A stretch of 16,049 nucleotides of DNA from a virus (lineage: Duplodnaviria; Heunggongvirae; Uroviricota; Caudoviricetes), in IMG/VR virus record IMGVR_UViG_2778261567_000016, positions 1-16,049 of that record, one strand, 5' to 3'. Below, one piece after another: positions 3,001 to 6,000 of the stretch (position 1 is the stretch's first letter; every line of letters starts with the position of its first letter). The position numbers were made by a program.

Positions 3001-6000
3001 TTACCGGGTTCAACGCGATCGCAGCCGACAAGGCCAATGGTCGGCAGAACAATGGCTAAAGCAAAAATAATTTTTTTCATTTTTTATCCTTAGTGAAAGA
3101 AAGACCCTTGTAAATGGCATAAATGCAGGGCGGGGTCAGAAACGCCAGTGCAAAGCCAGAAATAACTGCTATCGTATCCTTCATGGATATAAGGAACGGA
3201 ACGAGTAATCCGTAAATGCATGCGATAATTGCCAGTAAAATTACTATTGTGAAATACAGTTTCATTGGTATGTGGTATCCCGATATTTTTAACTGACAGA
3301 CAGCGCAATAAAGAGAATAATGATTTCTGTTATTGTCAGTACTGTGGCAAGGATTAAAAGCAGTTTTACTCTGCTTAAGTCACGGTTGCTTTTCATATAA
3401 ACGGTTAGTAAAAAACGGAAGAATTATATTCCTCTTAATATTTAATGTGTCACTGGCCTTCTGGCATACCATGAGTATTCAGGTCGTTAATCATTTCATC
3501 CAGAAGGAGTTCAAGCCCTTCTCGCCCCATGTCTGAAACAATGAAACCTTTATCTGGGTATGTAATGAGCATTTTCTGATAAAGAAATAGTGCTCTACCC
3601 ATTCCTTCTGCCTCGCCGTATTTTTGAATTAAATTCCATTCAATATACTGCTGTAAGGCAAACCGAATGGGGCCGGGATATATCGTCATAACCCCATGCT
3701 TCCCGTTATATATTACGGCGCGATCTGTTGTTCCGTGTTCGTTTGGGATATCAATAGTGCCATTCTTGTTTTCTTCTTCGTTGATGAATGTCGTCACGTA
3801 CAACCAGCGCCACTGGGCTACCTTCATCTCAACAGGGAGTTTACCCAGTAATCCTGCATTGTCGGCTTGTGCGAGGCATTGAAGGATTTGCAAACCTTTC
3901 ACATTAGGATGATCGAATGCACCTGCATCCAGACGGCGGATTGCGTCGTGATAATCAATAGTCATACTGCCAGTTCGTATACCTGTGGCTGTTGCTTCAG
4001 CCTGGAATTCAGTGTATTGCATGATATTTACTCCTCATCTTCATCAGCTGGTGCAATAACGTCATATCCTGCCTTTTCTGCAATAAACAGGAATGTTGAA
4101 AGACTTCCTACAAGTTCATCGTCATGAACATGACGAATTAATATTACTTTCCCGTTTTTGATGGTCAGCAATACTCTGGTTTGCTCGTGTTCTGCTGTTT
4201 TCTGATGCATTATTATCTCCCGTATGCTTTACGCAGAAACAAGCAGGCAATATGCATGTAATTTTTCCCGTGCTGTGCAATAAGGCAGGCTGTTTTGTGT
4301 GATGCCTTATGTTTTATAAAGGTCATATAAAACCTCCTGTTGATTAAGGGTGTGATAATCCCCGGCGATTAAGCCGTAATATATTATCCGGAGATGACTT
4401 GTTCTATTTAACTGGTTAGTTCTTTTTCAGCAGCTGCTTCAGCATAGCAACGTGCAAATTCAAGAACTTCATCACCTGTTCTTTTTATTGCATCGTTGTC
4501 TGACATTTGTAATACAACAACTGCGCATAATAAATTATGGATATTGTTTGCAAAGGAATCCGCTGCCAGGCATAAGCCTTCATACTTATCATGGATATTG
4601 CCAGTCATTGTTGCTACTCCTTTGCTTCTGATTTTCCCGTTAACAACCACATCAAGTCACAATTAAGCGCACTGGCCAGTGGTACTATCTGAGCAGCTGG
4701 AACTTCATGGATGCCGCATTCCCAGTCGTTTATGGGGTCACTATAGGTATGAATCATGCGGGCAAGATCAGATTCGGTTAATCCCAGTTTTGTACGGGCG
4801 CTTTTGATGCGTGCGCCAATACTTTCCACATGGACTTCAGGCACATTTACGCGAATAACTGACTCGCTGTTTTTTTCACTCAGCAGAGAAAGCGGATCGC
4901 ATCCCAGGACGTTTGCCAGGGGGATAAGCATGCTGATGGTTGGTTCGTACTCTCCGCTCTCCCACTGGATGATAATTTCTTCATCGAGATCGAGCAGCCT
5001 GGCGAGTTCGGCAGTTGTTAAGCCGCAGGCTTCACGTTTGGTGCGTATGCAGGCTATCTTGTTGCCTGAGCGAATAGAATGTTGTTGTTTTGTCGATGCG
5101 ATCGCTAAAGCATATTCATGAGTAAATTCCAGCACATCAAACCCAACCTCTTTTAATCGCGTATCATCCAGGAGGTTGAAGGTGCGAACAGCACTGAGCA
5201 GGTTTGCGATGGTTAATGCAAAAGAATCGAGGTCTAAATCATCACATAAGACCTTGTTGTAAGTATTGAGGCTACATGTTTTTGGTGTTGTTTGTAAGGC
5301 TTCCATATCATCACCATGCAATTCTAAGTTGAAGTTAATCAATATATAATTGATGGTGAGATATTATGTATCAGGAAAACGTGTGTCAATCAAAAATTGA
5401 TAAACTTGATTTTTTTGTAATGTGTGACCAATAATTTAATTTAAAATCAATAACTAACCAAATCTGTTGATATTGAATGGTACCGATGAGATGACTTTTG
5501 ACTGGATATATAGCAGCGCCATTCCCTCTTTTTCGATGCTCCATGGCTGATAGTTGGGATTGTCTGATAAGACCATGATCTTGCTTCCAATTTTTTGAAG
5601 TCGTTTGATGTAACATTCGCCATCAAAGCAAAATGCATAAATGCCATCACCGTCAAAATAAGTTACTGTTTTATCTAAAAACAGCAAGTCCCCTGGGGAG
5701 ATTGTTGGGGCCATGCTGTCCCCTCTGGCGTTACCAATTTCTATGTTCTTGAATGCTCTGTTACCGACCAGGCGGCGGGCATATTCAGGATCAAGTTCTA
5801 TTGAGCGTACAACATCAATTAGATCTCCCCGAACATGAGTTCCGTCGCCGCAGCTGGATTCAACATCCAGTACATTGAACACAACGCTGTCTTCTCTTGT
5901 ATGGTGTTTTTCAGCTGAAGAAAGTGTTGATGAGGTGTCTTCACCCAAAAACCAGGATTGTGGATAACCACTAATTACTGATAGTTGTGCAAGTTTATCG

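Follow-up and report, generated by a model that had tools for sequence, protein, structure and literature searches.

Do three short, closely packed genes beside the immunity region of a temperate phage form a cassette of their own, or do they belong to a longer early operon? The question is raised by a 16,049-nucleotide stretch of caudoviral DNA (IMG/VR record IMGVR_UViG_2778261567_000016, positions 1 to 16,049; hereafter the window). At 3450-4411 of this stretch, an initial annotation had described a self-contained triplet of minus-strand genes encoding proteins of 37, 60 and 190 amino acids (aa), which we call p37, p60 and p190 or, together, the trio. The triplet was thought to have its own promoter and terminator and to be a toxin-antitoxin (TA)-like, defence or anti-defence module. 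The window spans the genes for integration, immunity and replication of a lambdoid prophage of the Shiga toxin (Stx)/phiP27 type. Based on the results below, we conclude that p37, p60 and a protein with the p190 fold are most likely the conserved core of a PL-type leftward early operon of such prophages.

We began with the genes themselves. The three open reading frames (ORFs) lie on the minus strand exactly as annotated: p37 encodes a basic protein (4213..4326; ATG start), p60 an acidic protein of the family phrog_340 (4028..4210), and p190 an acidic protein of the family phrog_1515 (3450..4022). The gap between p37 and p60 is 2 nucleotides (nt) and that between p60 and p190 is 5 nt. A Shine-Dalgarno (SD) sequence, AGGAGG, precedes p37 at 4338-4333. 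The SD of p60, GGGAGA, is located inside the final codons of p37, and the last two codons of p60 are the SD of p190, GAGGAG. The charge contrast noted initially was also borne out, with an isoelectric point (pI) of 10.15 and a charge of +6.8 for p37, a pI of 5.0 for both p60 and p190, and a p60 C-terminus that reads DEDEE. For comparison with other phages, loci were fetched through p190 and, independently, through p37. Among the fetched loci there were 19 distinct alleles of p37, each exactly 37 codons long, with a ratio of nonsynonymous (dN) to synonymous (dS) substitution rates of 0.04-0.15 at dS values of up to about 2, and with a near-invariant C-terminal motif, L[YF]L[RK]KAYG. The dN/dS values of p60 and p190 were 0.11-0.19. 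With these results, we conclude that the trio consists of real, translationally coupled genes, and that purifying selection acts on all three, p37 included. The p37 gene is not called by the Prokaryotic Genome Annotation Pipeline (PGAP) in the window or in any RefSeq genome inspected, and relatives of p37 are present in 480 IMG/VR contigs. The protein is probably a helical hairpin.

Several observations on the individual genes accompany this comparison. Some GenBank records do annotate p37, for example as ECO111_2446 and BCI49708.1. The acidic tail of p60 (4028-4045 in the window) is a variable (DE)n tract, and near-identical alleles (loci L008-L087) range from 60 to 72 aa through changes in GAT/GAA/GAG repeats. 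The tail is missing from phiP27-type and Citrobacter-type homologues. Between the window type and the phiP27 type (L003/L005), dN is 0.46 for p60, 0.13-0.16 for p37 and 0.18 for p190. Relaxed constraint or an arms race could be the cause of this fast divergence of p60.

Are the three genes inherited together? A p60 homologue was found in 80/80 loci selected through p37, and a p190 homologue in 60/80. The p37-selected loci without p190 instead have a 120-aa protein (phrog_1737) directly after p37, and this protein aligns to residues 66-184 of p190 (hhalign probability 78%, E 1.7e-5), identifying it as a p190 paralogue. Because every p37-selected locus carries p60 together with either p190 or the 120-aa paralogue, we conclude that the p37 gene, the p60 gene and a gene for the p190 fold go together. 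Across 175 loci, the architecture 37-60-190 of the window was seen 127 times, 37-120-60-190 about 20 times and 37-120-60 about 21 times. The order p37, p60, p190 recurs across genera, and the trio always lies on one strand between cI and xis/int, in E. coli, Klebsiella, Citrobacter, Phytobacter and the phage CharmingMan. p37 is missing from the p190 loci of Rahnella and Yersinia; p60 is missing as well in Yersinia, and the Rahnella locus has a weak p60-like match. Stx1a-, Stx2a- and Stx2d-converting phages contain the 1.2-kb region examined here at 94-96% identity, with all of the genes labelled hypothetical protein, and the region was matched in 303 of 5426 complete E. coli genomes (about 5%), every time on the chromosome.

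The same comparison bears on whether the triplet is self-contained, and here the initial annotation did not hold. The genes of the trio are separated by others in Klebsiella, Citrobacter, Phytobacter and CharmingMan. The gene that follows p190 is usually coupled to it by an SD in most lineages. In the commonest variant among E. coli loci, a MarR-like gene begins 10 nt after p190, and in diverged phages an ORF6N or Rha-type gene with a coupled SD takes this place. At the other end, p37 overlaps the stop codon of the upstream gene in Citrobacter-type phages. Junctions between mosaic segments coincide with gene boundaries: the homology that strain 2012C-4227 shares with the window ends exactly at the p37 stop codon, and that of Ecol_AZ146-type prophages begins at 4381 and ends at 3464. 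In Citrobacter-type loci (L092-L122), the 3' end of the upstream ORF also contains a poly-G run of 7-11 G that directly precedes the start codon of p37. Because the run differs in length from locus to locus, it could shift the reading frame of that ORF and affect translational coupling.

If the trio is not self-contained, from where is it transcribed? The best promoter candidate lies 1 kb upstream, next to the repressor gene. That gene (5454..6173, minus strand) encodes a CI-type repressor with a helix-turn-helix (HTH) and an S24 peptidase domain, is named phage repressor CI in a 95%-identical Stx2a phage, and marks the immunity region upstream of the leftward operon. On the minus strand, 65 nt downstream of the cI stop codon, we found a PL-like promoter, TTGACA-17-TAATAT (5361..5389), which scored 10 of 12 matches in the scan. 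An operator-like 13-mer, AAATCAAGTTTAT, adjoins it on the same strand (5400..5412). A search of the window turns up this 13-mer twice and no more, each time on the minus strand and without mismatch. The second copy lies between cI and cro (6178-6190), and both copies sit in a 20-nt repeat that is 85% identical. As far as sequence can tell, promoter and repeat have the layout expected of a PL/OL equivalent. Between 5361 and 1384 of the minus strand, our scans returned no terminator-like site.

Two genes separate this promoter from the trio. The first encodes a 242-aa regulator with two HTH_3 domains (4614..5342, minus strand; phrog_4836, "CII-like regulator", E 2e-92). The second, p66, encodes a 66-aa protein (4408..4608, minus strand; phrog_4587, E 2e-34) in an ORF that is open to 4650. 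p66 is paralogous to the N-terminal part of the double-HTH protein (47% identity to residues 36-82), which suggests that it may be a truncated partner or modulator of the regulator. Because a near-consensus promoter and an operator-like repeat lie just downstream of cI, the trio most likely represents genes 3 to 5 of a PL-type leftward early operon of roughly 4 kb that runs towards xis/int. The position between cI and xis/int, on the strand of int, is found in the window, in the 95%-identical Stx2a phage and in diverged phages, and the early-left location assigned initially was correct.

Two side observations concern the immunity region. The 13-mer AAATCAAGTTWAT is restricted to the PL-like promoter and the cI/cro region, and its sites at 5400-5412 and 6178-6190 are candidate CI operators. 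The cI/cro region also contains a perfect 11-nt inverted repeat, AATATTAACTT / AAGTTAATATT (6175-6185 / 6254-6264), with arms 68 nt apart.

A different possibility is that the trio is an autonomous, lysogen-expressed cassette that functions in defence, superinfection exclusion or in a TA-like manner, as rexAB and sieB do beside lambda cI. This is the reading that a dedicated promoter and terminator would support, and we examined both. The proposed sigma70 promoter, TTAAAT-17-GATAAT (4383..4411, minus strand), is present in the sequence but is weak: its -35 element has 3/6 consensus positions and overlaps the stop codon of the upstream gene, and the site was not returned by the consensus promoter scan. 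Nor is it conserved, as close relatives have GATAAT, GATACT, GGTAAT or AATAAT as the -10 element and most related loci have unrelated sequence at that place. The proposed terminator fared similarly. An AU-rich hairpin followed by T6 does exist after p190 (3410..3434, minus strand; GAGGAAU-AUA-AUUCUUC at 3434-3418, then CG, then T6 at 3415-3410). However, the hairpin has only 2 G-C pairs and a folding energy of -6 kcal/mol, is no better than shuffled sequence (z = 0.16), and was not returned by the terminator scan. Hairpin and T6 are kept only where a block of p35, membrane protein and SPFH genes follows, and do not track the p190 gene. We conclude that this element is at best a weak terminator or attenuator.

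Other observations also bear on an autonomous cassette. In its favor, a -10-like hexamer (GATAAT or TATATT) lies upstream and the hairpin with T6 downstream, a small basic protein is encoded next to acidic partners, and other prophage backgrounds contain the block 4381-3464 at about 90% identity. Further, sites beside the immunity region are generally known to harbor prophage defence genes such as rexAB and sieB. Like rexAB, sieB and BstA-type genes, the trio is located beside the repressor gene on the same strand, in a region where gene content varies between related prophages. What sets the trio apart from those genes is its place behind the PL-like promoter with its flanking operator-like repeat, outside the cI transcript, and its presence as a lineage core instead of a patchy element. 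In addition, the trio has no PADLOC match and no toxin or antitoxin domain, is split by other genes or coupled to neighbours in other genera, and was never found outside the cI-to-int operon in the loci examined. Taken together, we regard an autonomous cassette as distinctly improbable.

We also detected a stem-loop in the leader, CGGC-UUAAUC-GCCG followed by GGGAUU (4357..4376, minus strand), about 45 nt upstream of the p37 start. Its 4-bp helix is kept in 15 diverse leaders from E. coli, Klebsiella and Citrobacter-type phages, with changes on both sides in 3/4 pairs. In this alignment 98% of cells are paired compared with 80% in shuffles, and 0/500 shuffles reach 98%. The stem-loop could be an RNA element of the early-left transcript, or else an internal transcript could begin there. 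A search of 3000-6500 against Rfam gave no match.

What do the three proteins do? Sequence and profile searches with p37, p60 and p190 against Pfam, NCBIfam, PADLOC and the PDB gave no match, consistent with the initial impression that none belongs to a recognizable family. p190 matches phrog_1515 across residues 1-189 (E 1.4e-91) and p60 matches phrog_340 across residues 2-59 (E 6.3e-22), both families being labelled "unknown function"; p37 has no PHROG match. The AlphaFold model of p190 is confident and has no structural neighbour. Only 123 clusters at E values up to 0.001 among 1.84 billion representatives make up the small p190 family, whose members are stand-alone proteins of about 190-220 aa. 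One member of phrog_1515, mEp021_25, is also placed in an early-left operon, and mEp021_25 and phiP27 L06/L07 belong to the families of p190/p60. We found no enzymatic or DNA-binding signature in any trio protein. Homology to the ordinary genes of a lambdoid early-left operon, which would have spoken against the initial reading, was likewise absent: no Pfam, PHROG or NCBIfam similarity connects p37, p60 or p190 to lambda Exo, Bet, Gam, Kil or CIII. No defence family in PADLOC-DB v2.0.0 corresponds to the trio, and the neighbouring HTH regulator alone matches generic HTH models. A literature search for the PHROG families, the locus tags, mEp021 or the ParE-like early genes described below returned no functional data.

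Three ideas about the origin of these proteins were rejected. BLASTP found nothing to identify p60 as a free-standing version of the C-terminal domain seen in the antirepressor-like proteins encoded after p190 in other phages. Comparison by hhalign of p60 with p190, and of p60 with the 120-aa paralogue, showed no relation when p190 was tested as a possible fusion of p60-like and p120-like domains. The longer family members P0077, P0160 and P0111 were considered as natural fusions that could point to a function; no Pfam domain was found in them, and they seem to be read-through or chimeric calls.

In lambda, CIII targets FtsH and Kil targets FtsZ. By analogy, we hypothesized that the trio proteins are co-translated early accessory proteins, made after loss of CI, that bind a conserved host or phage protein, and we give this reading about an even chance. 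Transcription would start at the promoter at 5389-5361, flanked by the operator-like repeat just downstream of cI, and the transcript would pass through the double-HTH gene, p66, p37, p60 and p190, and then through the membrane and SPFH genes towards xis and int. The trio would be silent or expressed at a low level in the lysogen and, upon CI inactivation or infection, its proteins would be made together in a fixed order. They would then act as a small set of binding proteins, following the logic of lambda CIII or Kil and not that of an autonomous TA or defence system. We infer a binding role because no enzymatic or DNA-binding signature is present and a conserved basic p37 is encoded with two acidic partners. 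The trio resembles the lambda PL accessory proteins CIII, Kil, Gam, Ral and Ea8.5 in lying on the leftward strand between the immunity region and xis/int, in its small size and in its lack of enzymatic domains; expression from an operator-controlled promoter by cI is probable, and action through protein binding is likely. It differs from the lambda proteins in having no sequence or profile similarity to them, in that the operon opens with a double-HTH regulator and not with N, and in that its three families are a co-conserved set.

Several points weigh against early accessory proteins of this kind. An internal promoter could precede p37, since an AT-rich -10-like element lies before the conserved leader hairpin, which could mark a 5' end. 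The AU-rich hairpin with T6 after p190 could attenuate transcription. Expression in the lysogen could come from read-through of the cI transcript; in CharmingMan the end of an S24-peptidase-like ORF overlaps p37. Tight co-evolution of the three proteins is called into question by mosaic junctions exactly between p37 and p60 (L004) and by p60 evolving much faster than p37 and p190. Mutual binding of p37, p60 and p190 is itself something that we infer, and the idea of a host target comes by analogy.

The proximity to the immunity genes allows another explanation, in which the trio proteins are factors of the lysis-lysogeny or induction switch that tune the phage's own circuit. For example, derepression could be made irreversible by p60 binding CI or the double-HTH protein in the manner of an anti-repressor, with p37 as a CIII-like stabilizer. 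The trio follows directly after the immunity genes and is a lineage core rather than a patchy addition. p60 has profile matches to C-terminal parts of PHROG "anti-repressor" families (phrog_4792, E 2.6e-5; phrog_2379, E 6e-4), although these matches are weak and cover about 45 residues, and BLASTP against the neighbouring antirepressor-like proteins came back empty. The ORF6N or Rha-type genes that follow p190 in diverged phages are antirepressor-like, and three Ant/Rha-like genes are found on the right arm of the window, where lambda has cII. In contrast, no trio protein has a DNA-binding domain, and RecA-driven cleavage of CI, which has an S24 domain, may be enough for induction. We consider switch factors unlikely.

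Does any evidence connect the trio to TA systems? As in type II TA systems, its genes are small, adjacent and co-directional with short gaps (2 and 5 nt). Searches of Pfam, NCBIfam and PADLOC identified no recognizable toxin domain in the trio, no known antitoxin fold or DNA-binding fold was found for p60, and neither an autonomous promoter nor a variety of genomic contexts was seen. The window yielded no positive evidence for a TA, defence or anti-defence module, and the sole hint towards one is indirect and comes from sister phages. In phages of the 37-120-60 type, the p60 homologue is about 84 aa long with an N-terminal extension. It lies directly upstream of a ParE_like gene, which encodes a 72-aa protein (PF24732, E 4e-20), with a constant 28-nt overlap in 26/32 related loci that have such a gene. 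A 140-aa protein of unknown function comes after the ParE-like gene. The window contains neither the ParE-like gene nor the gene for the 140-aa protein; a hidden Markov model of the sister-phage ParE-like proteins gave no match in the window, where p190 follows p60 instead. As a side observation, the early-left block of the sister phages (L004, L006, L007, L091-L128) comprises the 120-aa p190 paralogue (phrog_1737), a p60-like gene, ParE_like (PF24732, phrog_1525) and the 140-aa protein (phrog_1886), all uncharacterized.

The overlap with ParE_like raises the possibility that p60 is a TA-derived remnant, an antitoxin-like partner without its ParE-like toxin that serves as an orphan neutralizer, for example of ParE-like toxins of co-resident prophages or of host abortive-infection systems. 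Comparison with ParD/ParE-kind type II TA systems, such as PaaA2-ParE2 of E. coli O157:H7 prophages, shows small, overlapping or nearly abutting prophage genes in both cases, and the sister-phage p60 homologue overlaps ParE_like in antitoxin-then-toxin order. In addition, p60 is acidic and fast-evolving. The window differs from these systems in having no toxin domain, no antitoxin-type DNA-binding domain and no autonomous promoter, and the trio is one part of a long operon. There are also loci (L089-L091) in which a ParE-like gene follows the 120-aa paralogue directly and p60 is missing, and the adjacency of p60 and ParE_like may for this reason be a matter of gene order only; a constant operon gene order explains the adjacency equally well. 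With no ParE-like gene in the window and no known antitoxin or DNA-binding fold in p60, we consider a TA remnant highly unlikely.

A bolder version of the binding hypothesis is also conceivable, though we think it a long shot. p37, p60 and the p190-fold protein could be a three-protein early-phage complex, built on a fold without a solved or predicted viral neighbour, that neutralizes a conserved host function or a ParE-like or abortive-infection toxin, with p60 as an orphan anti-toxin. Loss of such a complex would alter induction efficiency and hence Shiga-toxin output in the widespread Stx- and phiP27-type prophages.

The operon type of the trio occurs in Stx1a-, Stx2a-, Stx2d- and Stx2e-converting phages. 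Because it is core to this lineage, the trio probably contributes to induction or early development, the step that controls toxin release; otherwise it is one of many uncharacterized early-gene sets in temperate phages. The families were already catalogued as hypothetical proteins, and the arrangement is that of a typical early phage accessory block. phrog_1515, phrog_340 and phrog_1737 are catalogue entries without a function, and neither the link between phrog_1515 and phrog_1737 nor the p37 family is recorded there. New here are the coding status and breadth of p37, the co-conservation of the trio, the relationship of p190 to the 120-aa protein, the association of p60 with ParE_like and the leader stem-loop before p37. 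The p190/120-aa family link and the p60-ParE_like association in sister phages provide handles for experiments.

The remainder of the window agrees with a lambdoid layout. On the minus strand the order is int (75-1361), xis (1395-1649), several small genes, an SPFH lipoprotein gene, a 62-aa membrane protein gene, a 35-aa ORF, the trio, the 66-aa gene, the 242-aa double-HTH gene and cI. The plus strand carries cro, the three Ant/Rha-like genes in the place of lambda cII, O-like, DnaC-like and DnaB-like replication genes, an HNH gene and a Q-like antiterminator gene. N, exo, bet and gam are all absent from the phage of the window.

The genes directly downstream of p190 encode a hydrophobic 35-aa peptide, p35 (3396-3289), the 62-aa membrane protein (3265-3077) and the SPFH/Band 7 lipoprotein (3080-2253; Band_7, E 5e-31), all on the minus strand. 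This block (2253..3396) has matches to phrog_1130 and phrog_200 and keeps its synteny in those related loci where it is present (L001, L003, L005, L085-L087). Together, the p35 ORF, the membrane protein and the lipoprotein, which is weakly HflK/C-like, represent a membrane module within the operon of the trio. The SPFH protein is named "serine protease" in GenBank phage records, a name that no tool result backs. An HflKC-like protein in an early-left operon recalls the control of lambda CII and CIII by FtsH.

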